Made by a program: the position numbers and the translations under genes. A stretch of 64,000 nt of DNA, from the IMG/VR virus record IMGVR_UViG_3300037501_000255; one strand, written 5' to 3'. The DNA is from a virus. Its lineage: Duplodnaviria > Caudoviricetes. Positions 26,188 to 61,918 of the stretch are shown here, piece after piece. The notes beneath the pieces are model-generated. The model worked only from the letters and a program-made list of their open reading frames with translations, was not told where the DNA came from and searched no databases. Each line of letters opens with the position of its first letter. Positions within the stretch are counted from its first letter, which is position 1.

Positions 26188-29100
26188 TCAGAAGAACAAT
26201 TTAGCTAGATTTTCAACTGATACATCTGCCGTCTGCGGCGCAGCCGGTGTGGCACCAGAACGATCATAGTTCAGCCCAACCACGGGAGCTGCAGTTTTCA
26301 CCTGCTCCTCAGTTTTGCGAGCCTGACCAATCATATTCTTCATGGCATCAAACTGGTCGCCGGGTAGCTTCACCAGGTTAGATGCAAAGCGGTGCAAGTC
26401 CGCGCGTGATTTTGCAATCAAACCACGCTCTTGAGCTTCGAGAGCGAGATTGTATGCACGCATCAACTTCGCCTCCTGCTCCTCGCTTGCTGCTTTGACT
26501 TCGAGCCCTGCCTTGGCCTGCTTGAATTCCTGAGTTAAGCCAGTAGCGAATTCGCGTCCACCATCGACCTGACCCAGGTAATCCTTCCAGTACTTAGCAG
26601 CTACTGCATCAACAGCGCCCTTGGCAACCAACTCGTCTATCTGGGCGGCCTTCACCACGCCAGCGCGAATCATGCGATCCAAGGCTTCAGCCGCCATACG
26701 TACATTGCGCGGTTCGGACTTGGCAACATCCTCGACAGCCTCTTTAACCTCAGCAAGAGTCTCGACCTTATTGAGCTTGTCCGACACCTTAGCATCGACA
26801 GCGACATCTGGGCCTGAACCCTTACGAGCCTCTGAGTAAGTGGACTGCCACTCGCCCGCGATCTTCTTCAGGAGTGATTCCCTCCATGCTTTGCGATCCA
26901 TGAGGCCGTCTTTGGCATGCATATCTTTCTCATGCTCCCTAACTTCCTCATCAGCCTTCTTATCGGCAATCTCGGCAACTTCCTTCTCTTCAGCCTTGTT
27001 GAGCGGCCCAGGCATATCGCCGGCATCTTTTGCCGCCATAGCACCATCTTCCGCATCCCACGCCCTCAGCGCCTCAGCAAGCTCTTCTGCAGCGTCAAGA
27101 CCATCCTCGAGTTCGTCGACGACACTATCTTCCTCTGTGTCGCCATGTCCAAGGAGACTCGGGATTTCAGGCTTGGTAGCCTCCTCCCACTCATCTTCGC
27201 CCTCGGTGAAGGCCTGCGCAACAAGAGCTTCGCGACGCGCTGCGCGAGCGGCTAGGAGAGCAGCTAGAGTTTCCCCAGCCTTCTCTATACCCTTCTCTTC
27301 TTTGTCATCATCCTTCTCTTCTTTGTCATCATCCTTCTCTTCGGACTCATCCTCTTCCCTGTCCTTGCCCTTAGCCTTCTTATCAGACTTGTCCTTCTTA
27401 GACTTCTTATCGTCGTCCCTCTTCTTCTTTTTCTTAGCAGCAAACTTATCTAGAAGATCAGCTGCTGCAGTAGCGACAACAAGCGCATCAGACACCGCCT
27501 CATCAACAACGGTCACCGGAGCAGAAACTGTTGATAGCGCGCCCAGCTCATCGGCAGCCTCAGCAAGCTCGGCCTGTACCTTTAGTAACTGAGTGCGGAA
27601 AGAGGCCGCGACCGGCGCCCCTTCTGCGGCAACATCAACTTGCTTCAGATCTTCGATATTCGCAGCGTTGCGAATTTCCTCAACCGCCGACTCGATAGAA
27701 GCGAGGGCTTCGGCAATCTTGTCCTTGCCAGTATCTCGTGGTGTCGCCGGAGCTTCTGCAGCTGGGGCTTCTGGGGCGGCGGGGGCGGCTGGTGATGCTG
27801 GAAGTTCACCTCCAAGCGTTTCAGCTGCTTTCTCAAGGCCTGCCGAGCGGATGAGTTTCATCACTTCCTTGGCATATGCCTCGGTCTTGAAGAAATCATC
27901 AGCAACAAGATCTTTTCCATCCTGCGAGAGATGTGCCGTATTCTTAACCGGCTCATCTAGTCCCACTTCGTAGGCGGATGATGCACGAACAGTCAGAATT
28001 TCATTGTTACCAGAGAAGAACTTCCAGGCGCTCTGACCCGGGGTTGCGCTCTTGGTGAGTCGCGCACGGATTGAAGCCATGCGCTGGAGGCCGCGCTTGG
28101 TCTGTTCATCACCGGGGAACATGCCGTCAGCGCCACTCTCAACGCTGCCATTCATTTGCTTATCCTTCATACGCATCTTCTCGTGAGGCTCTCCCATAAG
28201 CGGATACTGGGCCTTGCCAGGAGTTGGCTCTTCCGTGCCCTGCCAGTATGCCTTCTTCTCCACGGCACCTTCCTTATCATCAGCCTTCAGGACTTCTTTG
28301 GTACCATCAGCCTTCGTGGCGACCATAACCTTTCTACCGAGGGAGTCGGTCTTTTCCTCGACTGCACCAGGCCTCTTGTCATCGGCAGCCTCTTTCGTCA
28401 GTGCCTTGAGAAGCCGAGCGCGCTTAGCTCGACGCTCTTCAAGGGAGGCGCGTTGCAGCATCTCCTTCTTCTTGGCATCTTCTGCCGGGATATCTTTAGA
28501 TGTATCCAGCTCCTTGCCGGTCATCTGCTTATCTTGAGTGTCGCGAATCTTATCAGCGTCCCCCATCTTTTCGTACGGAAGGGCCTTTGCTGGGTCTTCC
28601 GTGCCCTGGTGATACGCTTGTTTACGCGCCTCTGCGCGCTTACGTAACTCTGCAAAATTCATTGGAATCTCCTTATTCTTCAACATTGCAAATCTATTGT
28701 GCAAAGAATTGTTTTTGGCACCAGCGTCAGAACCATCAGAATAATTTGATGATGTTGCCGATGCCGTTGCTATACCACTATTAGGATCCGGAAGAGTTCG
28801 TGAAACTCCTACGTTCTTGTCTACCATAGAGGTCGGATCTTGCCCGACCTCGCTATTCAAGCTCTCACCGGCCATGTCATGGCCAGTTGCTGCCGCAGAG
28901 CCCATATCGGGCTGAGTGGTCGTACCCGTTGGTCTCACTGCGGAGCTAACATCTATCACAGGAGCTTCTGAAGTCATATACCTTTCAGCCAACAGCTCTG
29001 CAACGGCTTCTTTAACCGATGTAAGTGCAGGATCTTTCATAGACTTCAGCTTTAGTGCAAGCTCCCGTAGCTCGGGATTTTTCATAGACGAAACATGCTG

Positions 29101-30045
29101 CACTACCATAGCATATTTCGGACTTTCATGATTTAGCGTACCCAATAGATCTATGATTTCTGATACGCTAAGATTTTTTCCTGGGACTGATGCGGGCGCA
29201 ACACCCCCTTCATCGCCAGATAAGGCCGCTGCCTTTTGAATGAAGTAATTATTGAAGCTAGCTAACACAGTGCGTACTTTGGCCCGCGGGTCGGCACCTG
29301 TAACAACAAGGCTAAGTTCAATTGGTTTTAGATCCTTATTTATTTCACCATAGTTTGCTTTGGTCTTGACATGGTGACAGTACTCAGCTTCGGTGGTAGC
29401 CACATTTGAGCACTCGGTACAGATCGACCGCCCCACAGCTGTGCCCATCGACACATTGGTCGCATAGCCCGCTTCAACCTTTCGAGCTAGATCTGGATAA
29501 TTTTTTCTATCTAATGCAAATAGCGCGTGGACACGCTTGAATTTAGGATCATAGAAGGTATCTACGATAATACCACGTATTCCATCAACACTATTGCTAA
29601 TATGGTCTTTACACAGCGGCTTTCCAACCCAATCTTTGTGAGATTTAATCAAATCTTCTTCGGGGAAGATGTCGCCATTTTGATTTTTATATAGCTGAAT
29701 ACCGTCTGGGCTAACCCACTTGACTGAGTCTGAGCCACGCGAATCTTTGACTGATTCAAAATGACCCCGCACAGGTTCGCCCCTAGCATTTTTTCTAAAT
29801 TCGCCGCTACCGTCGTCGACAAGATTTGCCTCGGCGGCATGCATCTGAATCGCATGACAATAGAGGAAATCTTCCATCTTAGGAGCGATCTTTGTTCCAA
29901 CCTTAACACGTTCTTGCTCTTCGCGCAAGGAAGAAATGATCTCTTTAAAGCGGCCAACTATTTCCGCCTCCTCGCCAACAGTTTCGGGAGAAACGATATT
30001 AGAAACTTGTAATTGATCGCTGAAGGCAATCTTTTTAATAGCCAT
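26188..30045 (-). CDS. Prohead protease-scaffolding fusion protein (1285 aa)
   Basis: The N-terminal domain NQNGDIF...VGKPLCKDH...GIIVD...VSMG...SICTEC...YCHH...EIN...IELSLVVTGADP is consistent with an HK97/assemblin-fold protease carrying catalytic His/Ser. It is followed by about 1000 aa of Ala/Glu/Lys-rich coiled and low-complexity sequence. It lies between portal and MCP. Confidence 0.78.
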   Translation of the reverse strand: MAIKKIAFSDQLQVSNIVSPETVGEEAEIVGRFKEIISSLREEQERVKVGTKIAPKMEDFLYCHAIQMHAAEANLVDDGSGEFRKNARGEPVRGHFESVKDSRGSDSVKWVSPDGIQLYKNQNGDIFPEEDLIKSHKDWVGKPLCKDHISNSVDGIRGIIVDTFYDPKFKRVHALFALDRKNYPDLARKVEAGYATNVSMGTAVGRSICTECSNVATTEAEYCHHVKTKANYGEINKDLKPIELSLVVTGADPRAKVRTVLASFNNYFIQKAAALSGDEGGVAPASVPGKNLSVSEIIDLLGTLNHESPKYAMVVQHVSSMKNPELRELALKLKSMKDPALTSVKEAVAELLAERYMTSEAPVIDVSSAVRPTGTTTQPDMGSAAATGHDMAGESLNSEVGQDPTSMVDKNVGVSRTLPDPNSGIATASATSSNYSDGSDAGAKNNSLHNRFAMLKNKEIPMNFAELRKRAEARKQAYHQGTEDPAKALPYEKMGDADKIRDTQDKQMTGKELDTSKDIPAEDAKKKEMLQRASLEERRAKRARLLKALTKEAADDKRPGAVEEKTDSLGRKVMVATKADGTKEVLKADDKEGAVEKKAYWQGTEEPTPGKAQYPLMGEPHEKMRMKDKQMNGSVESGADGMFPGDEQTKRGLQRMASIRARLTKSATPGQSAWKFFSGNNEILTVRASSAYEVGLDEPVKNTAHLSQDGKDLVADDFFKTEAYAKEVMKLIRSAGLEKAAETLGGELPASPAAPAAPEAPAAEAPATPRDTGKDKIAEALASIESAVEEIRNAANIEDLKQVDVAAEGAPVAASFRTQLLKVQAELAEAADELGALSTVSAPVTVVDEAVSDALVVATAAADLLDKFAAKKKKKRDDDKKSKKDKSDKKAKGKDREEDESEEKDDDKEEKDDDKEEKGIEKAGETLAALLAARAARREALVAQAFTEGEDEWEEATKPEIPSLLGHGDTEEDSVVDELEDGLDAAEELAEALRAWDAEDGAMAAKDAGDMPGPLNKAEEKEVAEIADKKADEEVREHEKDMHAKDGLMDRKAWRESLLKKIAGEWQSTYSEARKGSGPDVAVDAKVSDKLNKVETLAEVKEAVEDVAKSEPRNVRMAAEALDRMIRAGVVKAAQIDELVAKGAVDAVAAKYWKDYLGQVDGGREFATGLTQEFKQAKAGLEVKAASEEQEAKLMRAYNLALEAQERGLIAKSRADLHRFASNLVKLPGDQFDAMKNMIGQARKTEEQVKTAAPVVGLNYDRSGATPAAPQTADVSVENLAKLFF
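27291..27341 (-). repeat. 21-nt tandem duplication in the scaffold low-complexity region
   Basis: CTTTGTCATCATCCTTCTCTT occurs at 27300-27320 and 27321-27341 plus a partial copy, encoding EEKDDDK x2. Confidence 0.85.
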
Positions 30046-32043: not shown

Positions 32044-35000
32044 TCATTTCCTACTCTTGCTCTGCATAAATTGAGGAACCTTGTCCCCACGCTGACCCTT
32101 TCCGCCGGGTCTAATTGGAGCGGGATGATATTTATGCTTGACAGTTTCAGTGAATGGAGATTCGTGGGCAGCGCCTGGAGTTGCCGGCGTGCCTGGAGTC
32201 TTGCCACGACTCTTCTTTTCTGGAGTTTTTTTGCCCCACAGAATGTGAGGTAGTACATAGCGTAATTTTTTGTATACGCCTTCACCCTCACTCTGCTGGC
32301 GAGCAAATTCAGACACCGTAGGCAATTCGTCGCTGAACTCAACGGCCATTAACTTAGGATAACGGTCTGGGTCGAAAGCCTCGGCCGTCACCAGCGGAGT
32401 TTCCCGAACCTGAGTAAACCGCCTCGCCAGCTCCTTCTCGCGAACTACAGAAGCCTGCTTGTCAGTCAGCTCTTTCAGATATTCACTGACTTTTGAAGGA
32501 TCAAAATATACGCTTGGCTGCTTACCTTGTGCAGCATCTTTAAGTTTTTCAACTATGTTGTCGAATTTTGATAACGATTCATACTGAGATGCCATTATCG
32601 CTCCGAGCAATTCATTGTATTCCTTATCTACAATCGCCTTAATCTGCTTTTCATCTAAGCCCTCTGCAGAGGCCTTAGCGCGCGCCTTTGCTCTAGCAGC
32701 ATCAAGCTGCTTCTTGGCCTTAGCGGCCCGTTCGTAACGCATTAGAGCCACTTCCGCCTCATACTGAGCGCGGAAGAATAGCATATAAGGATCTTTTGCT
32801 CCCAGCATACGTTCCGGGCGTCCGCGTACGCGCCCAACCCCCCTGCCCATATCACGTTCTTCAACAACAGCTTCCAGCGCAGCCACACCCTCTGGTCGGT
32901 CTATTATAGATTCCCGATCTATATCACTCATAGCCTGCTGCAGCATCTCAATGGCTTGCACGTACTCTGGGGTCCTGTGCAGTTCATCCAAATACTGCGC
33001 ACGCAAGCGAAACTGCTCGCGCGCGTCGCTAGTAGCCACCTCAGCCCGCTCAGTAGCCTGCTTGAGATATTCATCATCAAGCATACGAAGGTAATTATCC
33101 AGCTCAGTTTGCTTATACAGAGCAGCTCTGACCCGACTCTCGCGCGAGGTGTCAGAGGCGGGATTTAGCTCCAAGGCCTTCTTGTACGCATATCTCATAG
33201 CACGACTAGCGTTTAACATGCGGGTGGACGGCAGCTGCTTTGATGGATTATTTGGATCTACAAATTCACGACGACGATACATGGCCGCAAGCTCAGCCTT
33301 GTCGGCTGCACGGTACTTCTTAGCCTTCTCGGCCACGCCCCTTTCAACTGCCCCTTCATAGCGCTGACGATGCTCGCGAATCTTCAGCTTATCCTCTTCA
33401 GTAGGCTCGAATACACGAACCCGGCCCCTTTGACGAGTTGATTCGGGCGACGAAGGCGCAGGTTGACTCCGAACAGCACCCAATCTGCGTTCAACATTGG
33501 CCACCTCGCGCTCTATACGTTGGATATCAAATTCCAGGTCCGTAATCGACTTTTGAGCGACCGCAATCTGGTCTTGAATACTCCTCTGTTCTGATGGAGG
33601 CGCAGAAGACAATTCCTTTTGTAATTTATTCAGTTGCTTATCGTCACCGTACTTACGAGCATATAATTTATCCCGCTTCTCCAGCAGACTTTCAAGCATC
33701 TTTTCCAATTCCTCTGCAGACTCAACATATTTTTGCGGATTCTTTAGTAAATCACGTATCTTGCCAATTTCAGAATGCAGCTGCCGGGCACGCTCTCTGA
33801 GGCGAGCTGATCTGCGCTGAACAGTCTCCTGTTCAATTCGATTGCGCGCCAGCCGTTGGCGATTAAATTCAGGATCTACAGCAGTGCCGCTTTCAAATGA
33901 AGCACGCTCCTGTCTGAGTCTAGCCAGCTCCGCATCCGGCTCTGCGAGGCGCTCTTTTATATCGCGCATTTCCTTTGAGTTAACATGAAGGCGATCCAGT
34001 AGCCCCTTCCGTACATCTTGAGGTATTGCACTAGGATCAATTAGGCCCAATTCAATATCACGACGGATTGCCCCGGTAAGAGCCGCCCTGCCCAATGGTT
34101 CAGGAGTTTCCCACCGACGAGAAAGTGCTTTGGCCCTCTCATCATATTGCGGAAATCTCCAAGGTTCAGATTCGACTGGCTCGGAGCCCCAACCGAACTC
34201 TTTTGCTATATCGCGTTCCTCTCGCTGCACTTTTTTAGAAATCTCAGGGGCCCAACCGCGCTCCCTTATAGTTTTTGCAGGCGCAATCTCTTCTGTGCTT
34301 ACAGGATGCGTTTGCTGGATCAGCCTATCAATAGTTGAAGACACATCTGATCTGAATTTTTGAAAAGCTGGCTGCTCGGCTAAGTACTTGCGTTTCGCCC
34401 TAAGACGCTCCGCTATAACAGGGTCCTTCTCTGCACTCTTCTCAAGATTAGAGAGCTCTGCTTGCAGTTTGTTAAATTCAGCCTCTAGCATTGCAGCTAC
34501 CTTGGCATTTGCACTAACCACACTCTCTAGATCTCTAATGATCTTATTATTGCCATCACTCTTGCTATATTTACCTAATATAAGTGATGGACCGAGTATA
34601 TCTGCAGGAATTTGAGCATCCGCTTTGCCTCCAGCGCGCTGTACCAACGCAGAAAGCGCCTGCCCCAGACGACCCATATATTCGAGCATCTCGCCACTCT
34701 GTCTGTGCGCAATATCTCTATTTATTGTTCCAATTTGAGATTTCCATTTAGAAATTTCAACATCTGCTGGAATAATTCCATCCAGACGCTCATAGTCAGT
34801 TTCAGGAGCAACATCTTTGGTTCTCACTTGCAGCTTGCGTTCCAAAGTCTTCTTCTGTCCTCGCAACATACCACCAGTAGCAACGTCCGGCATAATCTTC
34901 TCAAACATAGAGCGTACTAGCGGAGAATTGAAAGATTTCATATTCTCCTTGAGAGTATCGCGCACGCGAATCATTTCCGGATCTTGCGAGCGAGGCTTAG

Positions 35001-36882
35001 GGGCAGAGACGGCACCAAGCTCCCCTTCCAAGTCAGAAATTTGCTCGGGGAGAGCGTATTCGACCAGCTTAGTCAAGGCAGCGACTTCGGGGTGCGTATC
35101 GCCCAGCTCTTTAGCCCTACGCCTCAACTCATCTCTGGCATCGGCAAGCTGCTTTTTATATTCATCTATAGTCTTAAACTTCTCCAGTTTATCAGCAATT
35201 GTTTGCAGGCGCATCTCAACACTTGCAACATTTGAATATGGAGCAATGGCTGCAATCAACGTATCTGGATTTACCGCGCTACTATCATATAGAGATGCTA
35301 TTTCCGTACGAAGCCTGTTCGATTCTGCATCGGCAAGCTCAACCCGTCGCTTTGCATCCCGGTATCGTGCGCTAGCATCCTTCTGCTGAGCCAATTTATC
35401 CTTAGTTTGCGGACCCGCCATCAGAGCATTTAGTTCCACACTGGCCGCTTCAAGATCTTGTTTTGCACTGCGCAACTCCGCGTCGCTGGTGGTTTTCTTA
35501 GCAAGTAGAGGCGCTAATTTTTCCTGATCGGCAGTTGCGCGCAACAGTCCACGCGCCTCCTCTAGCTTGCCACTCAGCTCCTTATATTCCGCAACATAGT
35601 CTTCGCGAATAGCAGCAAGCGTGCGCTCACCGCGAGGCTGAGAGCCCCTCTCCTTGCTAGGACCAGTATTGGGCGAGGGCGGCTTAGCTGTAAGAGACGT
35701 AGATGGGTCGGGTATCTGCAGCAATATGCGATGCTCGCCACCAATTCTATCAGCGGCAGCCTTTATTGCCGACAATATATCTGCAACAACAGGGGCTACT
35801 GCAGCGGTGTAAAATTCTGATTCAACACCCTGATTTGTGAGAGGGCGGATGAAGTCATTTTCAGATGTTAGAAAGTCACTAATCTCGAGTAGTGGTGTCT
35901 GAGCGTCTTCAAATAAACGTTCTAGCGCAAGGCGCCCAAGTAGGTGAGGGGCTTTAATTGAGGCTTGTGCACGCGAAGAGGTCTTTTTGTGCAAAGAATC
36001 CATCGCCGACACTGCCTTCCGAAGCCTCGCAAGAATATCAACTTCCCCACGTACAAATGTTGGAGCATTACTCAATATTTGTTGTAATCGATTTAATCCA
36101 GCTAAAGCACTGCCCAATGAAGCTGAAAGTTCTTCCAAAATTGGCGCGTACTTTGCAACATCCTCACCACTAGGAGCTACAGGAGCTGTTGCAGCCTGCG
36201 GGGCAGGCTCTGCAGCCTCGCTAGGCTGCTCCGCAGGACTAGATGCCGGTGCATCCAAAGATGCTAATTCGGCACGCTTTGCCGCAAGCTCAGCATTCAG
36301 ACGATCCTGCTCACCCTTAAAATGAGCTTCGCGCGCAGGGTCAATGGTTACGCCGGGGCGCGTCAGCTGCTTCCACACGGATTGAATTCGATTAAGCTCA
36401 GCCCGCAAATCGGCAATCTCTTTTTGCAGGGCAATCGAGCGCCGCTGCTTATCAGAGAGATCTGCTGCTTCCCGCTTTAATTCTGGGGTGGGGAAGCGCT
36501 GTTCTAGTACATGCTCTTCAACTTCGGAGGGGGCCTCTGTTGGCTGCATACCTCCGCGAATATGAGTGACTTCGTGGCCCAAAGTCTTTACAAGCTCATT
36601 GATAAGAGCCTGCCGATCTTCTTCTACACCCTGAGTTTTTAATTGATTCTTTATAGCATCAAGTGAAATATATACTATGCCATCGCCTGTAGCCTTGCCT
36701 AGATATGGCGACTTAGGATTTCCGTGCTCCACCACGACTTTTTTAACGCCATCAAAGTATTTAGGATCTGCGCCCTTGAGCTTATTAACAGCCTCACGCA
36801 CGGCGCTCTCTTCGGGCTCTATGATTATATCTATAGATGAAAACCTATGTATAATTTCATTAATTATACTGTTAAATTTCAT
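32044..36882 (-). CDS. Giant coiled-coil protein with N-terminal zincin-like HExxH motif
   Basis: LVKTLGHEVTHIRG occurs near residue 105. The rest is E/K/R/A-rich and helical, with a basic Pro-rich C-terminus. Confidence 0.6.
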   Translation of the reverse strand: MKFNSIINEIIHRFSSIDIIIEPEESAVREAVNKLKGADPKYFDGVKKVVVEHGNPKSPYLGKATGDGIVYISLDAIKNQLKTQGVEEDRQALINELVKTLGHEVTHIRGGMQPTEAPSEVEEHVLEQRFPTPELKREAADLSDKQRRSIALQKEIADLRAELNRIQSVWKQLTRPGVTIDPAREAHFKGEQDRLNAELAAKRAELASLDAPASSPAEQPSEAAEPAPQAATAPVAPSGEDVAKYAPILEELSASLGSALAGLNRLQQILSNAPTFVRGEVDILARLRKAVSAMDSLHKKTSSRAQASIKAPHLLGRLALERLFEDAQTPLLEISDFLTSENDFIRPLTNQGVESEFYTAAVAPVVADILSAIKAAADRIGGEHRILLQIPDPSTSLTAKPPSPNTGPSKERGSQPRGERTLAAIREDYVAEYKELSGKLEEARGLLRATADQEKLAPLLAKKTTSDAELRSAKQDLEAASVELNALMAGPQTKDKLAQQKDASARYRDAKRRVELADAESNRLRTEIASLYDSSAVNPDTLIAAIAPYSNVASVEMRLQTIADKLEKFKTIDEYKKQLADARDELRRRAKELGDTHPEVAALTKLVEYALPEQISDLEGELGAVSAPKPRSQDPEMIRVRDTLKENMKSFNSPLVRSMFEKIMPDVATGGMLRGQKKTLERKLQVRTKDVAPETDYERLDGIIPADVEISKWKSQIGTINRDIAHRQSGEMLEYMGRLGQALSALVQRAGGKADAQIPADILGPSLILGKYSKSDGNNKIIRDLESVVSANAKVAAMLEAEFNKLQAELSNLEKSAEKDPVIAERLRAKRKYLAEQPAFQKFRSDVSSTIDRLIQQTHPVSTEEIAPAKTIRERGWAPEISKKVQREERDIAKEFGWGSEPVESEPWRFPQYDERAKALSRRWETPEPLGRAALTGAIRRDIELGLIDPSAIPQDVRKGLLDRLHVNSKEMRDIKERLAEPDAELARLRQERASFESGTAVDPEFNRQRLARNRIEQETVQRRSARLRERARQLHSEIGKIRDLLKNPQKYVESAEELEKMLESLLEKRDKLYARKYGDDKQLNKLQKELSSAPPSEQRSIQDQIAVAQKSITDLEFDIQRIEREVANVERRLGAVRSQPAPSSPESTRQRGRVRVFEPTEEDKLKIREHRQRYEGAVERGVAEKAKKYRAADKAELAAMYRRREFVDPNNPSKQLPSTRMLNASRAMRYAYKKALELNPASDTSRESRVRAALYKQTELDNYLRMLDDEYLKQATERAEVATSDAREQFRLRAQYLDELHRTPEYVQAIEMLQQAMSDIDRESIIDRPEGVAALEAVVEERDMGRGVGRVRGRPERMLGAKDPYMLFFRAQYEAEVALMRYERAAKAKKQLDAARAKARAKASAEGLDEKQIKAIVDKEYNELLGAIMASQYESLSKFDNIVEKLKDAAQGKQPSVYFDPSKVSEYLKELTDKQASVVREKELARRFTQVRETPLVTAEAFDPDRYPKLMAVEFSDELPTVSEFARQQSEGEGVYKKLRYVLPHILWGKKTPEKKSRGKTPGTPATPGAAHESPFTETVKHKYHPAPIRPGGKGQRGDKVPQFMQSKSRK

Positions 36883-37124
36883 ATATTCTCCAAAATATCA
36901 TCGAACTCATCAGCCATTGAAAACTCGCCGACAGAATCCAGAGCAGAGGCTATAGTACGTAGCGAACTAACCATGTCTGCCTTCTTTTGCGCCTTAAATA
37001 TGTGCTGTACTAATCCCCAATCACGATCAGTGAACCTGGACTGCTTCTTGCCCTTATGCTTGCGTACAACACGCTTGGCTTTTTGCCACCTGCTCTCATC
37101 TTTCTTAGATAATTTTCCAGGCAT
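36879..37124 (-). CDS. Small basic protein carrying the head-region helical motif
   Basis: Basic N-half, then QKKA, then LRTIASALDSVGEFSMADEFD. Confidence 0.65.
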   Translation of the reverse strand: MPGKLSKKDESRWQKAKRVVRKHKGKKQSRFTDRDWGLVQHIFKAQKKADMVSSLRTIASALDSVGEFSMADEFDDILENI

Positions 37125-37125
37125 A

Positions 37126-38427
37126 CTATGCTCCTACTACAATACGATCTTTTAAAAACGGTGTCGGATCTATAGTTTTCGAGTCATACTTCATAATAAA
37201 ATGCAGATGCGGTCCGGTCACTTGTCCGGTTTGACCAGCAAGGCCGATAACCTGCCCCGGTTGAACTATGTCTCCAACAGATACAAGAATCTTGCTTAAA
37301 TGCAAATACATAGTCACCAGCCTATCATCCGGACCATGTGCGACTTTAACCATGTTCCCGCTCGCCTGATTGCCGGCACCGGCAAATATGACACGGCCTT
37401 TAGCAAAGGCCAAGATTTTAGTACCTTCTGCTGCCTCAAGATCCACTCCCTTGTGAAAGTGACCTGGTTTCTTGGTTATTGGATCCACACGTACCCCATA
37501 CGGAGATGTTATGCGTTGCCGCCCCGCTAGCGTTTCACCGGGCTGAAGAGGTCTCGGTCGATCTACTTCACTGGGACCGGGCTTATGAGAGTGCGGCACG
37601 GTCGGGGCCGAACCGCGAAAAATCTTGGCTAATTCTGAGTTTACATACTCAGCCAAATTAAACTCGGCCTTTTTGTACTTTTTAACAAGTGCTGGGGCGA
37701 GATACTGATTCATCAATGTTTTAGACTCATGTCCAACAGACTCTGATACGTTTTCGAGGGCCTTGTCAAAGTCCTTTGTTCGCTTAAGCTCATCACGCAT
37801 CAATCGATTTGCATGAAATCCACGCAGATCTTTAGCTGTAATATCAAAGTCAGCAAGGTATCTATTGACAACCTTGGCGCGAATGCGCTTGCCATCCTCA
37901 TACTCGAAGACAAAATCCTCGTTCGACTTACCCTTTAGAAGGTCTTTGAGTACCTTTGCAACAGCAGCGTCAGTGAATGAGAATTTTTGATCTACTTGCT
38001 TTTTACCTAGAAAACTAAATTTCACGGTATTGCCGCTTATTTTAACATGCTTCTTCTTAAGCGTAGTTGCACCAAATGTACCGAACTCATCCACGGAGTC
38101 GTCATTGCCAACGCGCATGGCGGTAAGGTCCAAAAGCGCTACTACGGCAGCAAGCGCGCGTACCTTCTCGTCATCAGACTTTAAATCTGAACGATATTTC
38201 TTTTGTAATTTTGGCAGACTCTTTTTTAGAGCATTTATATGCTCAACCTTCTTCTTCCATCTCTTCTTGACATGAGCATCATCGTATACCCGAACTTCGC
38301 CGGATTCGGTCTTAATTTTCTTGACGTAATTCTTCTCGTATTTGCGCTTGGCTAAGACATATAGCGATGAGGCGCCATATGCCTCAAGCGTCATTGCTCT
38401 ATTCTGCACTCTCCGGCTCAGTATCAT
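37126..38427 (-). CDS. DNA topoisomerase IB fused to a C-terminal M23 metallopeptidase
   Basis: The Topo IB pentad is intact: R (AMRVGN), K (FLGKK), R (KDLRGFHAN), H and Y (VGHESKTLMNQY). M23 motifs are HKGVD (HxxxD), YLHL and GPHLHF (HxH). Confidence 0.88.
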   Translation of the reverse strand: MILSRRVQNRAMTLEAYGASSLYVLAKRKYEKNYVKKIKTESGEVRVYDDAHVKKRWKKKVEHINALKKSLPKLQKKYRSDLKSDDEKVRALAAVVALLDLTAMRVGNDDSVDEFGTFGATTLKKKHVKISGNTVKFSFLGKKQVDQKFSFTDAAVAKVLKDLLKGKSNEDFVFEYEDGKRIRAKVVNRYLADFDITAKDLRGFHANRLMRDELKRTKDFDKALENVSESVGHESKTLMNQYLAPALVKKYKKAEFNLAEYVNSELAKIFRGSAPTVPHSHKPGPSEVDRPRPLQPGETLAGRQRITSPYGVRVDPITKKPGHFHKGVDLEAAEGTKILAFAKGRVIFAGAGNQASGNMVKVAHGPDDRLVTMYLHLSKILVSVGDIVQPGQVIGLAGQTGQVTGPHLHFIMKYDSKTIDPTPFLKDRIVVGA

Positions 38428-38722
38428 TACTCACCCTAATCGGCATAGCGCCCGCTATTTTGCCCAGCCTAAATAGTAACGAATCTATATCTTTACATGC
38501 TCTGTTATAGTTCAACCTCTCGGCAAGAGATATCTCGGTCGAGCTATATATACGCATTTTATTGATAGTTGCGCGCCAACGTACAAGAAGGGGGATGTGT
38601 TTGGCCGCCTGCTCAGCACTCCCCCTTCTCCCACCACAAATATCCCAAATATAATCTAGCGCACGACCAATGCCGTAATACGTGCTGAAAGATATATTCG
38701 TGACATCATGCGGCAGCTTCAT
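38399..38722 (-). CDS. Hypothetical protein
   Basis: Co-oriented ORF between the portal and Topo IB genes. Confidence 0.5.
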   Translation of the reverse strand: MKLPHDVTNISFSTYYGIGRALDYIWDICGGRRGSAEQAAKHIPLLVRWRATINKMRIYSSTEISLAERLNYNRACKDIDSLLFRLGKIAGAMPIRVSNDTEPESAE

Positions 38723-38725
38723 AAA

Positions 38726-40630
38726 TCACGGTGCTGGGCCGGGAGGCGTTGGCGCTCCCGGCATACCACCAGGCGGCTCCGCTGGTGTTGGTGGAGGCGG
38801 CATACCCATGCCTAAATCGCCGCCAGGCATTAGAGGTGGTAGTCCGCCCAATCCAAGGTCACCACCCGGCATCGGAGGTGGGACGCCCGGCAATCCACCC
38901 GGCATACCGCCTGCAAGACCACCAGCCGCACCCCCGGCTGGTTCAGGAATTGGCTCAGTTGGATTAAGACTCTTTAGCTGAGACAGGCTCATCTTAGATA
39001 GATTATCTTGTTCCTTGGCTATAATAGCGGCTTCAATCATCTCCTGCCTAATATTGGCAATTTCATTCTTGCGGCTCAAACCAAGGCTACGATCTAGCGT
39101 TCTAACAGAAACACGATTCTTTTCCACTAGTGTAGAGAGATGTGCGATATAATTATCGAGATCATATAGTGTCATATGATTCCATTCTACTTTGGGTACA
39201 ATCAAGCGCTTCTCTTGACCAACGATATCATAAAATCCTTGTACCTCAGAAATCGGAGCAAAAACCTTCCTCTCTAGCCAATTAGCTATCATAGTCCTAA
39301 ATCCGTTGTAGCGCTGCCTCATGACATCCAGGGCAACGGATGCTGTAGCATACGACGCGCCCTCCTGTGTAAGCAGGGATTTTGGAACCATAAGGCCTGT
39401 AAAGAGGTTATCCATAATCTGATTGATATCTGCGGCAGTATCCAGTATGTGCCCAGAAGCCCCGACTCGGTCAATCGTCACAGCACCGTGTGTGATGATT
39501 TTGAAATCTCTGTCAAATTGCGCCTGCTCCATAATAGCGCGCCAATTATCCAATTCTTCCTGCCGAGGATAGAATCCCTCAGCGCCATCCGTACCGATCT
39601 TAACAAGAGTGATCGGATTAACCATGCTATCTGCCTGAATATACTTACATTCCCTATACTTATCATATAACATTAGGTCTTTCCAGACACTAACTATAAT
39701 AGAGGTGCCACGAACATCATATGGTGAATTTAACATCTTCAAATGACTGATGTTGAAGTTATCCAGCGGAATCATTTCATTTCTAATCACATGATTGATG
39801 ATTTTCGGATCTATTTGATCACGTATGCGCGCATACTCGGGATCCGCATCTGATACAATCTTTTTCAGTTCCGGGTCGGGTCTTAATAAAATAGTAGTGT
39901 TCTTGGGGGAGGTCGGTGACGCTCTGACTGTGATAAAGTCTGGATTGTGCAAATATAACTGATCCCACGAGCCAGTAGACTCATCAAAGGAAGCGTATAC
40001 AAATGCTTCGCCCAACTTCCAGAACTCCAGCGCCGCCTGCTGAACAACGGTCTCGAGGTCAATTTTATCACACATATCCAAAAAGAATCTCTCTACGCGC
40101 TTATCATCGCACCGTATAGATAGCTTGGATATTGGGTATGTAGCATGCAGATTAATTGCATTTCTCACCAGAGGATTTGTCTCGTAATAAGCTCTATTCC
40201 ACGCATTCATTGTGATACGATCGCGGGGAAGCTGCATGTTTTGAGTGAGGAATAGGGGAGAGAATGGCTCTGGACCCACATGCGTGGAGTTTGACACTCC
40301 GCCTATGCGTCCTCCAGAATTCATATTTGTCGATGCAGTCTTATGAAGACCGGAGGCGAGCGCCAAGTTTGGTCTCGGATGCTCTTCTGCGCGAGCATTT
40401 ACCTCCTGTAGATACTCTCGGCGCTCAAGGCTAAGATGCCCAAGGGCGGCGGCTGACTGAGCCTGCCTGTGTAATGTTGTCCGTGAAACATTTTCTACAG
40501 GCAAACCACGCTGCTGCTGGGCTTGACGATAATACATTTGATCTATAACGCTGGTGCGAGGCTCGGCGTCCCCCCAACGTTTAGCCTGCTCTTCAGCTCT
40601 CTTTATAACACTTGGTTCATGCTTTTTCAT
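38726..40630 (-). CDS. Portal protein
   Basis: YYETNPLVRNAINLH...GEAFVY...LHNPD...HLK...PYDVRGTSII...TGLMVPKSLL is a portal-type sequence directly downstream of terL. It has a Pro/Gly-rich C-tail. Confidence 0.82.
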   Translation of the reverse strand: MKKHEPSVIKRAEEQAKRWGDAEPRTSVIDQMYYRQAQQQRGLPVENVSRTTLHRQAQSAAALGHLSLERREYLQEVNARAEEHPRPNLALASGLHKTASTNMNSGGRIGGVSNSTHVGPEPFSPLFLTQNMQLPRDRITMNAWNRAYYETNPLVRNAINLHATYPISKLSIRCDDKRVERFFLDMCDKIDLETVVQQAALEFWKLGEAFVYASFDESTGSWDQLYLHNPDFITVRASPTSPKNTTILLRPDPELKKIVSDADPEYARIRDQIDPKIINHVIRNEMIPLDNFNISHLKMLNSPYDVRGTSIIVSVWKDLMLYDKYRECKYIQADSMVNPITLVKIGTDGAEGFYPRQEELDNWRAIMEQAQFDRDFKIITHGAVTIDRVGASGHILDTAADINQIMDNLFTGLMVPKSLLTQEGASYATASVALDVMRQRYNGFRTMIANWLERKVFAPISEVQGFYDIVGQEKRLIVPKVEWNHMTLYDLDNYIAHLSTLVEKNRVSVRTLDRSLGLSRKNEIANIRQEMIEAAIIAKEQDNLSKMSLSQLKSLNPTEPIPEPAGGAAGGLAGGMPGGLPGVPPPMPGGDLGLGGLPPLMPGGDLGMGMPPPPTPAEPPGGMPGAPTPPGPAP

Positions 40631-40643
40631 AATTCTTTACACC

Positions 40644-43556
40644 TTATATTCTCGGCAAATATGCCAACATCGGCACTGGCAAACCGGGACCTTTAGCCTT
40701 GACCTCGCTGCCCTTGAAGCCGCTCGTCGCCAAGAACTTGTATGCAATCAGAGCATATATTGTTGCCATGAGCCCGTCGTTTTGGATAGCACCCTTGACA
40801 TATCTGTTATATACATTATCATTCTTCACGATCTTCTTAACTTCCATCGAGGTAAAATGCTGCATCAACCACTCGATCCTATCGTATGACTCGCCATGTA
40901 CAGGGAAGCGGATTTTGCCATTTCTAACCATAGAGAATATCTCTTCTATCATGGCATCCTTATTTAAAACAACTCGTAATTCTTTTGGCTTATATGATAT
41001 AGTGCTATTCAAGGTGCCGCTGTTTATACATCCTAGAAATCGCTCACCAAAGCCCATCGAGCCCTGCATGTGTTGCACTATGTCTTGGCCGTATCCGATA
41101 TCTGCAGCAGCAACCTGAACCTTGAATAGTCGATACATTTCAGATATGATATTGACCTTGTATTCAAAATCATTGCGCTTTAATCTATAAGCATTTTCTA
41201 TTGTAAATATTCCATTTTTGTCCACACTAACAATTACCACGGCTGTATATGACTGCCCGGCATCAACTCTTCCTCCGCCAGAGTCCTCTTCATCCTCATC
41301 GCCAGCACCGACTAGGTCCTTCCCTCCCCAGTCTATGCCCATCACGACGGTTTTGTCTCCGCGATCAATAATAGTTTTTGCTAATCCACGAGTTCCGTCG
41401 CAGCAGTTTGCGCGAATATCATCTAGCGATATCGTCATGCCGCCACCACTATAGAACTCTCCCAATGTTTCATTTTTCCAGGCCTTCTCACTGCGTTCGC
41501 GATTTACAGACGGATCTAGGTCCAAAATGCTCTCTTTAGTAAACCAAGGATGTAGTAAAACACTTACGTGATAGCCCACATACTGCGTCTCGCCAAGCTT
41601 AGTAGGCATCCAGCGCCCACCCTCGATCGCATCAGCCTTTTTCTGCAACGTACCGCATTCGGGGCAGCGAACATCATGCCCGGATACCCAAATCTTCTTC
41701 CAGGAGTCGCTACCCATAGTGTATAGGAAAAAATAATGGGAGCAGCCAGTACACCGTAGCTGATAAAATCTCTGATCAGATTTTTGCCATAGGTTATAGA
41801 AGTGGGATCCTGTTCCTTTCGGCGTTCCAAAATATACCTGTATACCTTTGGTGGGCCTGCCATACTGTGCAGATGTTAAGATGGGACCCGCCGTCTCGAT
41901 AGCATCCTTTGACATATCCTGGCAATTGTGTGCAATCGGGCCACCGACATTTTTGCTGGTCCGGCTTGGGCAAAGTATGAAGTTATGGTTATCAGCTACG
42001 CCAATATCGTAAACGGCGTCTTCGCCAGCATCATACTGTAATTTGTCAACACATGTGAAAGCGTGCGAAGGACTACTGTTTGACCATGCATACCTATCTG
42101 CCGCCCAGCTGCGATAAAAAGATAGCTTATATTCCATATTATGATGCACATATGGCTGTATTATCTCACAAAGTTTTGAATAATTGGATGAATCCAGATA
42201 TAATGAAAAGTATGAGTAGTACTTTCTATATTCCGCGTTAATTCCAAACCTGGACAGCATCGCAACTAATCGAACCTGCGTATCCTCATCAAATGAGCAC
42301 GTTGAGATGCACGCACATCCCTTATTTACGAAGCCATCATCCATAAACCAGACAGCAAGAGCGCGAGCGTCAGCAGCATCCAACATCCACTGCGGACACG
42401 TACTCTTTGTGCGAGGAATGTATCCTGGTAATACAAAGCACTTTGATGAAAAACGTACTGCTGGCTTCTGAACATAACCATTTTTCTCAATATATGCAAC
42501 GCTACTATTAAACATCGACGCTTTCCATTCTGCGTATTCGCGCTGCTGTATGCCATGTGTTACAGAAAGGCGAAAGCGCCCACTCTTGGGACTCGAGATA
42601 TGGCCATCTCCGAGGAATGAACCAATTGCTATCTGCAGCTGGTCAGAATTCAAAGCGCGCACGCAGAGGTCTGTCCCAGGCGAAGTCATCAGGGCATCAC
42701 CGATACACAGGGACGATGCATCTACCCAGCCACGCTGAGTTAAAAATCTATGATTCGGCGTGCATTTGATCTCTCGATTTCCACAAGTAATTTGCATTAA
42801 TTTTCGGATTCCGCGATTCCAGGCACCATTAATTTGCTTGAACTCAAAAGTACAAGTTGACTCATTATAGCTCTTTACAAGCGGAAGCGGCTCACCGTTC
42901 GCCCACATATCATACAGCTTGCCTATTTTCTCTTTGCCAGAATCAGTCTCTATGTTCTGATCGTAGGGGAAACACTCGTCAAAGAAAATAGCGTCCTGCG
43001 AGAGACCGCGGATTCGGTCGCCATCCGCTCCGGTACCCTCTATACGAAGCTTATTGTATCCCTTAAATGTCTTTTCAGCTATAGCATCCTCCGTTCCTGC
43101 GACTTTAATAGCATTTGCGTCATTTTTTAACATTCTGCTATTTATATAGCCATTCTGCGAGCCTGCTACCATAGGGCCCAATTTATCTTTGGCGTACTTC
43201 GACATTAATCCTAGTGTTGGAAATACATGCAGAACCCTCATCGGAGGTTTGTCTGGTCCAGTGCCAAAGAGCCCTGAGGCTGTGAAGTACAATGATAATA
43301 CAGCCGCAAGAACAGTGGCGCCTATTTGGCGCCCCTTCAAAATCACCATCGGTTTAGCGGTCTTATTAGCCGCCTGAGCTGCCACTTCGCGATACAGGTC
43401 GGCCATAAACTTCCAACCAGTGCCACTCATGCGGAATGGTTTTCCGTCTACAGTCAGATGATTTTCTGCAAATGAAACAGGATCAAGAAGAGATATCTCA
43501 TTCTTGATCTGATTGAAAAGTTTTAGCGTTACTTCTTTGTTGGCTACTACCGTCAT
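40644..43556 (-). CDS. terL: Large terminase subunit with LAGLIDADG intein (620 aa after splicing)
   Basis: KGRQIGAT (Walker A), AIFFDE (Walker B), FGTP coupling motif and nuclease motif VMGIDWG. Confidence 0.92.
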   Translation of the reverse strand: MTVVANKEVTLKLFNQIKNEISLLDPVSFAENHLTVDGKPFRMSGTGWKFMADLYREVAAQAANKTAKPMVILKGRQIGATVLAAVLSLYFTASGLFGTGPDKPPMRVLHVFPTLGLMSKYAKDKLGPMVAGSQNGYINSRMLKNDANAIKVAGTEDAIAEKTFKGYNKLRIEGTGADGDRIRGLSQDAIFFDECFPYDQNIETDSGKEKIGKLYDMWANGEPLPLVKSYNESTCTFEFKQINGAWNRGIRKLMQITCGNREIKCTPNHRFLTQRGWVDASSLCIGDALMTSPGTDLCVRALNSDQLQIAIGSFLGDGHISSPKSGRFRLSVTHGIQQREYAEWKASMFNSSVAYIEKNGYVQKPAVRFSSKCFVLPGYIPRTKSTCPQWMLDAADARALAVWFMDDGFVNKGCACISTCSFDEDTQVRLVAMLSRFGINAEYRKYYSYFSLYLDSSNYSKLCEIIQPYVHHNMEYKLSFYRSWAADRYAWSNSSPSHAFTCVDKLQYDAGEDAVYDIGVADNHNFILCPSRTSKNVGGPIAHNCQDMSKDAIETAGPILTSAQYGRPTKGIQVYFGTPKGTGSHFYNLWQKSDQRFYQLRCTGCSHYFFLYTMGSDSWKKIWVSGHDVRCPECGTLQKKADAIEGGRWMPTKLGETQYVGYHVSVLLHPWFTKESILDLDPSVNRERSEKAWKNETLGEFYSGGGMTISLDDIRANCCDGTRGLAKTIIDRGDKTVVMGIDWGGKDLVGAGDEDEEDSGGGRVDAGQSYTAVVIVSVDKNGIFTIENAYRLKRNDFEYKVNIISEMYRLFKVQVAAADIGYGQDIVQHMQGSMGFGERFLGCINSGTLNSTISYKPKELRVVLNKDAMIEEIFSMVRNGKIRFPVHGESYDRIEWLMQHFTSMEVKKIVKNDNVYNRYVKGAIQNDGLMATIYALIAYKFLATSGFKGSEVKAKGPGLPVPMLAYLPRI
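41925..42974 (-). mobile_element. Intein (350 aa) inserted after the terminase Walker B Glu
   Basis: Begins CFPYDQNI and has block B CTPNH, LAGLIDADG motifs IAIGSFLGDG and LAVWFMDDG, block F VYDIGVADNHNF, and ends AHN followed by +1 Cys (DE|CQDM). Confidence 0.95.
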
Positions 43557-45650: not shown

Positions 45651-46129
45651 TTACCCTCCCCGTTTCCGCAGGCGACTTCTCGGATATATTTTATAAAATC
45701 AACTACCGCAGGCTCCGGCTTGCCGTCTAGAAGCTTAGTCCAATATTCAACATTGGATTTAGATCCGCAGTACGAATCTATGGGCGCAACATAGTTGGCG
45801 CTTTTCCTCTTCTTTTTCTTGCGTTCGACACCCCTCTTCTTGCGAATAAAATCTACGATCGTCCGTATCTTGCCGCTTCGATAATCATCCAAAACCTTAG
45901 GCCATAGCTCTCCGTAGTCATAATTTTTTCTTAATGGCTGAGGAACTTTAGATACGGCAGTATACATTAGAGTTTGTGACGCCATATTGGCGACAATCTC
46001 ATGCTCGGGGCGAGTGCTTAATTCAAGCACCTCATTACCTAGAGCGCACACCTCTGGTAGGTCCAGTGTCTGACCCATGCTGCGCAGAAGTGTCGCGAAT
46101 TTGATTAAAGATGGAACTAAGGTGTTCAT
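45647..46129 (-). CDS. Hypothetical protein
   Basis: Coupled to both neighbours by 4-nt overlaps. Confidence 0.6.
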   Translation of the reverse strand: MNTLVPSLIKFATLLRSMGQTLDLPEVCALGNEVLELSTRPEHEIVANMASQTLMYTAVSKVPQPLRKNYDYGELWPKVLDDYRSGKIRTIVDFIRKKRGVERKKKKRKSANYVAPIDSYCGSKSNVEYWTKLLDGKPEPAVVDFIKYIREVACGNGEGK

Positions 46130-46878
46130 ATGATATCGACAAGGCGCCGCTCACGAATGAGCTGCTCAGTCATCTCCTTTGTTAGTTTGATTCTTTGCAA
46201 AACACCAAATTCAATTAGATCATTCAAGATATTTGGATCATATTTTATTGCAGCTGAAAGCTTATCAGAGGCGTACTTTGGCTTAATCTTCTCTATTAGT
46301 TGCAAATTTGAGCGTATTGCCTGCTTAAGCTCTTCATCAATAGCCATACCGTACTTAGCTGCATAGTAAAATGCTCTAATAATGCGATTTGGCGAGGCTG
46401 TCATTGCAATTACAGGATCTACAGGGCAACGTATAATGCGATGCTCAATATCATACTTACCCATAGACGTAATATCTAATATTTTTGAAAAATCTAGCGG
46501 CACCAATAAGGTATTAATGGTAAAGTCGCGAGAGTACGTTTCTCTCACCATATTGGTAGCTACAGTCAGCCCCCTAGCAATGAGTAGCTGATCTATGTTA
46601 TCATAAATTTGATTTGTAGAGAAATCTATCGAGAATCGCCCGTGTCGTATTTTCTTATGGCCATCAGCTAACACAGTAGGCGTCGTACCAAGCCGCGCAC
46701 CTACTAAATCAGCTAGATTTGAAATGCTGCTTTCACCATTTGTAAGGTCTATATCGTTCAGTCCATCGAGCAGCCCCATAAATATATCACGCGGAATGCC
46801 GCCAACGAGATATGGCACACGGATGCCATTACTCTCAGCAGTCTCAGTGATTATGTTCAAAATCTCTTTTAGATCCAT
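46126..46878 (-). CDS. Class II (CCA-adding/poly(A) polymerase family) nucleotidyltransferase, head domain only
   Basis: YLVGGIPRD...DIDLT (motif A), SRDFTIN (motif B) and PNRIIRA (divergent motif D). Confidence 0.85.
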   Translation of the reverse strand: MDLKEILNIITETAESNGIRVPYLVGGIPRDIFMGLLDGLNDIDLTNGESSISNLADLVGARLGTTPTVLADGHKKIRHGRFSIDFSTNQIYDNIDQLLIARGLTVATNMVRETYSRDFTINTLLVPLDFSKILDITSMGKYDIEHRIIRCPVDPVIAMTASPNRIIRAFYYAAKYGMAIDEELKQAIRSNLQLIEKIKPKYASDKLSAAIKYDPNILNDLIEFGVLQRIKLTKEMTEQLIRERRLVDII

Positions 46879-61294: not shown

Positions 61295-61918
61295 TTAACC
61301 GTCAGATCTCCTAAATCTATTGAGATTTGGGCTATCTTTGAGCGCCGCTAACTTTGCCATTCTCTGTGCCGTTAGCGGGTCCGACGCTCCCCCGTCAAGG
61401 TCTACCAGCGAGGTGGGGTCAGGCGGCATTAAACCGGCCATGGCTGCGGCGAACTCCGAAGTCCCGGCGCCGGCCCCCTTGGCGGTCTTAGCGACCGTCA
61501 TATCGCCTTTGGAGAGGCCGAACTCGCGCTCGGCCTCCGCTCGGAGGGCGAAGATCTCTTGGCGTCGCTCCTCTTCTGGCAAGCTCTTAAGGTGAGGGTA
61601 CTCCTCCAACAGCTCGCGCTCAATCTCTTCATCCTGCATTTGGGATCGAGTTTTTGGTTTTACCCTGGCTGATGGCTGAATGGAGGATGCTAACCCCTGC
61701 CCTCTCGGTACAAGGTCATATTTGCCGGCGATTAGAGCAGCTACTTTAACGAGCGTAGCTTCATCAACATCTGCATCCGCCAGCTTTTCCTTGATTGAAG
61801 TAAATTCGGCATTAATTGCTGCGGACATGATCGTCTTGCCGCATGCAGGGCATGAGTTGTCCTGAAGTGCCTTGGTAAAGGACGGCGGTATCGGGGTTTG
61901 ACAGTTATTGCATTTCAT
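61295..61918 (-). CDS. Zn-ribbon protein
   Basis: MKCNNC...CPACG at the N-terminus. Confidence 0.6.
   Translation of the reverse strand: MKCNNCQTPIPPSFTKALQDNSCPACGKTIMSAAINAEFTSIKEKLADADVDEATLVKVAALIAGKYDLVPRGQGLASSIQPSARVKPKTRSQMQDEEIERELLEEYPHLKSLPEEERRQEIFALRAEAEREFGLSKGDMTVAKTAKGAGAGTSEFAAAMAGLMPPDPTSLVDLDGGASDPLTAQRMAKLAALKDSPNLNRFRRSDG

Follow-up and report, generated by a model that had tools for sequence, protein, structure and literature searches.

Why a bacterial virus should keep in one polypeptide an enzyme that acts on DNA and an enzyme that acts on the cell wall is the question raised by a gene at positions 37126-38427 of a 64,000-nucleotide stretch (called the window hereafter) of the IMG/VR virus record IMGVR_UViG_3300037501_000255. 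Its product joins a type IB topoisomerase (TopIB) to an M23 peptidase. The window belongs to a 142-kb record with a CheckV completeness of 38%, and the source is a fragment of a huge phage. The fusion was found to be real, with both catalytic sets intact; concerning its function we lean towards a polyvalent head protein with two modules, carried inside the capsid and later ejected, of which the M23 module would breach the murein and the topoisomerase would act on the entering DNA.

The gene is a single uninterrupted open reading frame (ORF) of 433 amino acids on the minus strand, where all genes of the region lie and to which the window coordinates below refer; its stop codon is TAG (37126-37128), and the codons of the stop and of the topoisomerase catalytic residues were checked. 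The TopIB domain comprises residues 33-253 (37669-38331), as delimited by PF01028, Foldseek, sequence alignments with PDB entries and invariant columns, and the Pfam match itself (Topoisom_I) covers residues 57-234 with an E value of 6.7e-31. The catalytic pentad of TopIB, Arg-Lys-Arg-His/Asn-Tyr, is complete: R105 (38113-38115), K142 (38002-38004), R202 (37822-37824), H233 (37729-37731) and Y242 (37702-37704). In HMMER alignments to solved structures R105, K142 and R202 fall on the catalytic Arg-Lys-Arg of human Topo I and of Deinococcus TopIB, and H233 and Y242 are invariant in a 24-sequence homologue alignment; they stand nine residues apart, an H-x8-Y spacing that we take to be the same as in the poxviral and bacterial enzymes. 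The M23 (LytM-type) metallopeptidase domain, residues 305-433 (37129-37515), was assigned from PF01551 (Peptidase_M23, residues 324-421, E 1.2e-29), PDB matches and conserved columns. All of its Zn ligands (HxxxD and HxH) and the catalytic His are present, namely H325 (37453-37455), D329 (37441-37443), H376 (37300-37302), H407 (37207-37209) and H409 (37201-37203); H325-x3-D329, H376 and H407-x-H409 are conserved columns in the homologue alignment, and the motifs align with those of the solved TagE/Csd and lysostaphin. The identity and integrity of both modules are near certain, and the initial annotation, which had described the R/K/R/H/Y pentad and the M23 HxxxD and HxH motifs as intact in one frame, was right in this respect.

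The AlphaFold model built on the homologue alignment (mean predicted local distance difference test, pLDDT, of 80) consists of two independent globular domains, residues 33-253 and about 300-433, with pLDDT above 85 across residues 60-240. Between them lie a short helix (258-270) and the low-confidence stretches 254-258 and 270-290, where pLDDT is below 50. The best Foldseek match of the topoisomerase half was the variola enzyme 2h7f (E 2.9e-13, target TM-score (TMt) 0.57), with the bacterial TopIB structure 3m4a and the structure 1a35 also found, and the fold of the catalytic domain is the one common to tyrosine recombinases. For the other half, in which the M23 beta-sheet fold was found, the matches were LytM (2b13, TMt 0.85, root mean square deviation 2.0), lysostaphin (4qpb, TMt 0.83) and ShyA. 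No entry clearly spanning both domains was found in BFVD. A protelomerase or integrase identity of the N-terminal half was considered and rejected: the Phage_integrase match reached 23.6 bits against a Pfam cut-off of 27.1, the best folds are topoisomerases, and the sub-cut-off match is due to the fold that TopIB and the tyrosine recombinases have in common.

A search covering 5.8 billion proteins, clustered at 90% identity, returned about 28 clusters with both Pfam domains, which come from JGI, ENA, Logan and NCBI assemblies and go down to 49% full-length identity. Across this clade both catalytic sets are invariant or nearly so; they are under purifying selection, which was counted in favour of a packaged and ejected protein. 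An identical protein is also present on a 368-kb contig, and a separately assembled 23.7-kb Logan contig, probably from the freshwater source sample, spans the ORF without a difference. The fusion is absent from all 50,697 phage records. An assembly chimera or misassembly is ruled out by the occurrence of the fusion in independent assemblies, the Logan contig among them, and an inactive domain was rejected in view of the conservation of both catalytic sets. The initial annotation had asked whether the homologues are always separate genes, and this turned out not to be so: besides the fused clusters a sole split case was met, in the related locus L007 (L numbers denote related loci and P numbers related proteins), and it is not good evidence of a split. 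It consists of one in-frame TAG, either 2667-2669 or 1090-1092, the two TAGs of this 5-kb contig, and the alignment to the relatives continues across it. Both of these TAGs end genes that continue in frame into the next gene, and one of them stands between the topoisomerase part and the M23 part, which suggests TAG read-through or recoding in L007 rather than a true split. Unlike this possible recoding, TAG is a normal stop in the window.

The position of the gene is the next piece of evidence. The order in the region is large terminase (TerL), portal, a 107-amino-acid ORF, the fusion gene, an 81-amino-acid basic protein, a 1612-amino-acid coiled-coil protein, three small proteins and a 1285-amino-acid protease-scaffold protein. 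The portal gene (38726-40630; phrog_16240, E 5.6e-45) encodes a protein 47-57% identical to the portals of L004, L005, L012, L013 and L014. The gene is thus next to the portal gene, as had been annotated, with one ORF between them (38399-38722), which overlaps the start of the fusion gene by 29 nucleotides; this ORF has no family match in Pfam or PHROGs, and a small ORF occupies its position in the relatives wherever that stretch was seen. The far side of the head-internal block is marked by the 1285-amino-acid protein (26188-30045), a protease-scaffold fusion. A prohead-protease domain stands near its N-terminus (phrog_18299, head maturation protease, E 1e-10, residues 127-229), and its N-terminal part shares 59% identity with the homologue in L012. 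As far as the contigs reach, L002, L004 and L005 show the same succession of TerL, portal, small ORF, fusion gene, further genes and protease-scaffold, and the slot between portal and prohead protease is conserved in 7 related loci. Because of this conserved gene order the fusion gene is placed in a head-morphogenesis block rather than among genes of replication or lysis. Hardly any of the structural genes are recognised by PHROGs, and a major capsid protein, sought for its K-x-A site, was not found among the ORFs examined.

In order to place the topoisomerase module among its relatives, 1.84 billion representatives were searched exhaustively with its profile. Its closest relatives lie within proteins of 700-3400 amino acids. 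Pfam scans of eleven such giants recognised an ATP-dependent DNA ligase, RNA ligase, the 3'-phosphoesterase and primase-polymerase of LigD, a 2H phosphoesterase (weak Acb1 match), a PolyA_pol/CCA head with HD, and the ADP-ribosyltransferase domain ART-PolyVal; in shorter relatives ART-PolyVal, 2H and HAD_SAK are added according to the scans and NUDIX according to precomputed Pfam annotation. The topoisomerase is the one constant module of the slot, N-terminal in most of the relatives looked at. In L012, L013 and L014, where portal, TerL and protease are 41-59% identical to those of the window, TerL, portal and small ORF are followed by a topoisomerase-led giant in the slot of the fusion gene. 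For more distant TopIB proteins, in L009 and L010, BLASTP recognised no portal homologues upstream of the gene, and in L010 a distant portal lies four small genes downstream of the TopIB gene. The protein of the window is accordingly a small member of a topoisomerase-led multi-enzyme family that is apparently undescribed.

In the maximum-likelihood tree of the topoisomerase module, midpoint-rooted with the root falling between the solo enzymes and the rest, a clade with M23 or VanY (support 94/80) is sister to the clade of the giants (99/96). Within the former P0031, which carries VanY of the D-Ala-D-Ala peptidase family, is sister to P0026, which carries M23 (100/99). Since the two peptidases are exchanged between sisters, the comparison points indirectly to murein peptidoglycan as the target of the C-terminal module. 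P0031 (L006 1515-3734) and P0026 also have an extra middle domain of about 250-300 amino acids between topoisomerase and murein peptidase; that of P0031 contains GWFGAGFYVALDP, has no Pfam match and by eye might be ART-like. In P0025, P0027, P0028 and P0029 (e.g. L005 10001-12235) the M23 domain seems to be a circular permutation that retains every catalytic residue, the YxHLS...HLH half coming first and the R-x-S-x-F-G...HxGxD...ITH half last.

The junction and linker of the window protein (residues 254-304, 37516-37668), delimited by pLDDT and by comparison across 30 relatives, begins at a candidate processing site, Y251-K252-K253-A254/E255, in which the slash marks the putative cut (A254/E255 at 37663-37668), and contains a conserved amphipathic helix at about residues 258-270 (37618-37656) followed by a variable Pro-rich stretch. 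In the family the junction is composed of the last topoisomerase helix (DPALVKKYKK), an optional Lys-rich spacer, A or S, a short hydrophobic stretch and a conserved ELxxxIDxILG helix. Related, usually basic elements ending with A or S stand at other module boundaries of P0031, P0026 and P0029, e.g. KKAKKKS/WFEVPMMKLA and KKKRKKA/EFEVPLAKYA in P0031, and at the N-termini and domain boundaries looked at in the relatives there is a run rich in Lys with A/S as its last residue, an [IL]S[KI]RA-like motif, or both. In the giant clade most N-termini have the [IL]S[KI]RA element (MRQISKRAKV), which also follows the topoisomerase immediately (KKKKAT-ISCRA) and recurs repeatedly further on; the form [ILM]SK[RK][AS] occurs 21 times in the 10,023 amino acids of five giants versus 0.2 times in shuffles (maximum 3), and lies between domains wherever Pfam domains flank it.

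The N-terminal leader of the fusion protein (residues 1-32, 38332-38427) is low-confidence in the AlphaFold model (pLDDT about 30) and modelled as disordered. Within it stand MILSRR and the first residues of VLAKRKYEKNY, a segment that does not vary, and its counterpart in the giant relatives is the ISKRAKV leader; the homologue alignment shows MILSR[RK] kept in the close subclade and no change at K27, K29 or Y34. In comparisons between orthologues, N-terminal leaders end with [KRN]-x-A just before conservation starts (MRKQA/IPIYSI, KIA/VPIYSI, MKISKA/IQGPQM). A polyprotein punctuated for a protease and trimmed at its N-termini would be expected to show such a pattern, and the motifs lend indirect support to processing. 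Concerning the maturation site that the initial annotation had proposed at KYKKA/EF, its location has held up, as it sits exactly at the family-wide module junction and similar elements mark other boundaries; against it, the E and F after A254 are not conserved and a part of KKYKKA belongs to the C-terminal helix of the topoisomerase, where solo enzymes have NFYKHG. Cleavage at this place can be called plausible.

The course of events under a packaged and ejected two-module protein would be as follows. The protein would be made late, when the head genes are expressed, and taken up by the procapsid beside the portal, where the prohead protease would probably trim it or cut it at the Lys-rich K-x-A junction. 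It would be ejected along with the genome; the M23 module, as a Zn endopeptidase for the peptide cross-links of murein, would open the peptidoglycan locally for the ejection apparatus and the DNA, and the topoisomerase would enter with the DNA and, through a 3'-phosphotyrosyl intermediate at Tyr242, relax torsional stress or supercoils before phage gene expression. The ligase, LigD and 2H modules of sister phages suggest that relaxation might proceed alongside enzymes of end repair and sealing at the start of infection. By eye, the protein has no signal peptide, membrane segment or wall-binding domain; since neither of the first two was seen, it would have no Sec route to the murein inside the producing cell. 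Its position in the head module and the architectures of the relatives fit a capsid-packaged, ejected protein, and to this extent the packaged polyprotein of the initial annotation is sustained. Its roles for the topoisomerase in packaging, ejection and early transcription are indistinguishable.

Several observations weigh against this reading. Packaging, cleavage, ejection and the substrate of the topoisomerase are inferred only. The sequence was present in only one DNA run and in no RNA run. Since the 38%-complete record has no other murein hydrolase recognisable by Pfam, the M23 module could be the lysis enzyme; since no tail type was recognised in the 142 kb, where no sheath match was found either, any route of ejection is conjectural. 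Of the N-terminal clamp domain the topoisomerase model retains only a two-stranded beta-hairpin (residues 34-48) before a long helix, and because of this reduction normal relaxation activity is not certain. The junction motif of the window protein is degenerate (KKA-EFNLAEY). A relaxed leader pattern, M-x(0-4)-[ILV]S[KRN][KRQNA], is present in 5 of the 53 minus-strand ORFs of the window, all of them at 20.3-38.4 kb and including the fusion ORF (MILSRR); it was counted in favour of a packaged protein, but it was set after the sequences had been seen and is descriptive only. Furthermore no structural module is visible around a solo TopIB relative, L011, on a contig of 466 kb.

The alternative that deserves most attention, which we regard as rather improbable, is that the protein is a late enzyme that is never packaged: the topoisomerase would relieve the torsion of the concatemer at the terminase-portal motor of a phage with a genome above 300 kb, and M23 would be an endolysin released at lysis. 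The proximity of TerL and portal would suit this assignment, no other SLT, lysozyme or M23 match was found in the 142 kb, and many phage M23 proteins are annotated as endolysins. What a fusion would gain is not obvious, however, for two activities needed at separate times and in separate compartments. The gene is flanked by head genes, no holin- or spanin-like neighbour was found, and none of the marks of an endolysin (lysis cassette, export signal or wall-binding domain) was found, with 38% of the genome covered. Moreover the ART-PolyVal, 2H and LigD partners in the relatives are effector and repair domains and not lysis functions, and the common leader and punctuation motifs point to a capsid-related fate. 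It is less probable still that the topoisomerase is a pilot of the DNA end, which clamps the DNA, or is covalently trapped on it in a suicide 3'-phosphotyrosyl adduct, close to the end of the genome that is first out of the capsid, and so would tether murein-cutting and repair modules to the leading end and shield it from exonucleases. Poxviral TopIB does form a clamp and a covalent intermediate. The topoisomerase is the constant and mostly N-terminal module of the slot, its gene is next to the portal gene and its catalytic Tyr is invariant, all of which would suit a pilot; yet the full pentad with the general-acid Lys is kept, as expected of an enzyme that turns over, the record is a fragment without information on genome ends, and nothing separates this proposal from ordinary relaxation.

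That M23 is a processing peptidase which cuts the junctions of head polyproteins, instead of a murein hydrolase, we consider very unlikely. The relatives are multi-module proteins with repeated junction motifs and no conserved dedicated zincin adjoins the gene, the HExxH of the 1612-amino-acid neighbour being kept only in the closest relative; most of the giants looked at, however, have the same punctuation and no M23, VanY, which is likewise a murein-specific peptidase family, takes the place of the module in P0031, the gene of a prohead protease lies nearby, and the closest structures are murein hydrolases. An artefact of assembly or gene calling that joined two genes is effectively refuted, as the about 28 clusters are independent, the JGI and Logan ORFs are identical, and L007, whose parts are called as separate genes, has a continuous alignment interrupted by a single TAG. 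A wider view of the packaged and ejected protein, possible but held by us only tentatively, would see in it the minimal form of a so far undescribed class within one lineage of huge phages: TopIB-led, portal-adjacent, protease-punctuated polyproteins whose capsid-stored fragments would be injected, with the topoisomerase as a DNA-bound pilot coupling the toolkit to the incoming DNA end. The injected cargo would then include murein peptidases, a kit of ligase, phosphoesterase and primase-polymerase similar to that of non-homologous end joining, 2H and CCA enzymes for RNA repair or anti-signalling, and ADP-ribosyltransferases.

Among known systems, poxviruses offer a parallel on the topoisomerase side: their virion core contains a packaged TopIB, which serves early transcription by acting on the entering genome. 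The vaccinia and variola enzymes (2h7f, 3igc) are likewise compact, have the R-K-R-H-Y pentad and gave the best structural match; sequence identity is about 20%, and in contrast to them the present enzyme has an N-terminal DNA-binding domain reduced to a hairpin, a bacterial virus as its source and a fused peptidase, with packaging only proposed. Polyvalent proteins, described from phages and conjugative elements, are predicted by Iyer, Burroughs, Anand, de Souza and Aravind (2017, PMC5512222) to be packaged, processed and injected by phages of the portal-terminase type. As in these, one polypeptide here holds a nucleic-acid enzyme and a murein-attacking enzyme and is encoded among the late virion genes of a portal-terminase phage; the disparate domains, the position among virion genes and, by way of the relatives, the domain network were all found. 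ART-PolyVal, 2H and NUDIX are shared through the relatives of the fusion protein, which itself has M23 only. Unlike the polyvalent proteins it has just two modules, with no fusion to MuF or portal, and no conserved zincin metallopeptidase (MPTase) was found. Neither topoisomerase IB nor M23 is mentioned in the text of PMC5512222. The [IL]SKRA-type punctuation and the fixed post-portal slot were observed here and are not taken from that article, whose text was not searched for them.

Wall-degrading domains for genome delivery are also known from capsid-internal ejection proteins, such as the lytic transglycosylase gp16 of T7, and there are solved phage proteins with an M23 domain, named 'Internal protein' (9k2v) and 'Gp16' (9m7n); these lack a topoisomerase and have no homology to the fusion protein outside M23. 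M23 is used for entry by virion proteins of the tail as well (gp13 of phi29, tape-measure M23), and many PHROG M23 matches are tape-measure or tail proteins. Those are tail components, whereas the fusion gene stands in the head block between portal and protease and has no tape-measure features.

The jumbo phages PaBG, phiRSL1, Lu11 and Motura have a phage-specific topoisomerase I, which Iyer et al. (2021, PMC7824862) note in some jumbo phages without drawing a link to polyvalent proteins or genes of the virion. It shares with the fusion protein the TopIB catalytic domain of tyrosine-recombinase fold and the occurrence in very large phages, with BFVD matches to PaBG S5VM74 and to Motura, but it is 540-670 amino acids long and about 30% identical, has a different N-terminal extension and no murein hydrolase, and is treated in the literature as an enzyme of replication or topology. 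In the Xanthomonas phage PhiXhv-15 the topoisomerase gene is a few genes from the head-tail connector gene. A virion topoisomerase in a cultured phage was also sought: that of PaBG is not among the 14 identified virion bands, and the other papers concern type II enzymes. In the searchable literature no description of a TopIB-M23 fusion or of topoisomerase-led polyproteins was found, which agrees with the supposed novelty of the fusion; while it follows the logic of polyvalent, ejected phage proteins, the TopIB-M23 pairing and the TopIB-led family are apparently undescribed.

Should packaging and ejection be borne out, the protein would be the first counterpart in a bacterial virus of the virion topoisomerase of poxviruses, and some huge phages would bring enzymes of DNA topology, and in the relatives of DNA and RNA repair, into the cell before any gene expression. 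The [IL]SKRA and K-x-A motifs would amount to a readable punctuation rule of polyproteins, which could predict the capsid cargo of uncultured phages. Owing to its small size (433 amino acids, two assayable enzymes and one junction) the window protein is the most practical test case for the class.

The remaining neighbours of the fusion gene are described here. The 81-amino-acid basic protein lies directly downstream (36879-37124), starts with MPGKLSKK and contains QKKA/D; its counterpart is fused to the next large protein in L005 and L007. The 1612-amino-acid coiled-coil protein (32044-36882) has no Pfam or PHROG match. Its N-terminal LGHEVTH, an HExxH motif, is kept only in the closest relative, L002, and the counterpart N-termini in L004-L007 cannot be aligned; a zincin in this neighbour was for these reasons rejected as the processing enzyme, and a conserved zincin role of the protein appears doubtful from the alignments. 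A helix of the form L-x-x-LANKLDK-x-GLYKEAD-x-LD starts otherwise different proteins of the head block in L014 (11624-14135), L013 (22936-24027) and L012 (20819-21310 and 23017-24165), and a related segment, LRTIASALDSVGEFSMADEFD, ends the 81-amino-acid protein (36879-36962); the shared LANKLDK-type helix may be a docking or capsid-targeting element.

Insertions were seen in the packaging genes. TerL of the window (40644-43556; GpA_ATPase, Intein_splicing and LAGLIDADG_2 in Pfam, phrog_675) carries an intein with a LAGLIDADG endonuclease, and the parts flanking it match the intein-free TerL of L012 and L013. The portal genes of L004 (6564-9704), L005 (6408-9575) and L012 (5345-9586) have insertions of about 385-780 amino acids at the position that is REC/CKY in the window portal; these look like inteins, and that of L012 has a weak LAGLIDADG match. 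Upstream of TerL a stand-alone gene (46126-46878) encodes a nucleotidyltransferase of the PolyA_pol/CCA type with 250 amino acids, which has homologues in L002, L004 and L013; the giants P0209 and P0211 carry this domain in one chain with the topoisomerase. Elsewhere in the window two adjoining homing-endonuclease genes, of the HNH and GIY-YIG types according to PHROGs, stand at 12475-14684 amid otherwise unrecognised genes, and a DNA polymerase gene (61905-63992; phrog_405, E 1.7e-122) runs off the window end.

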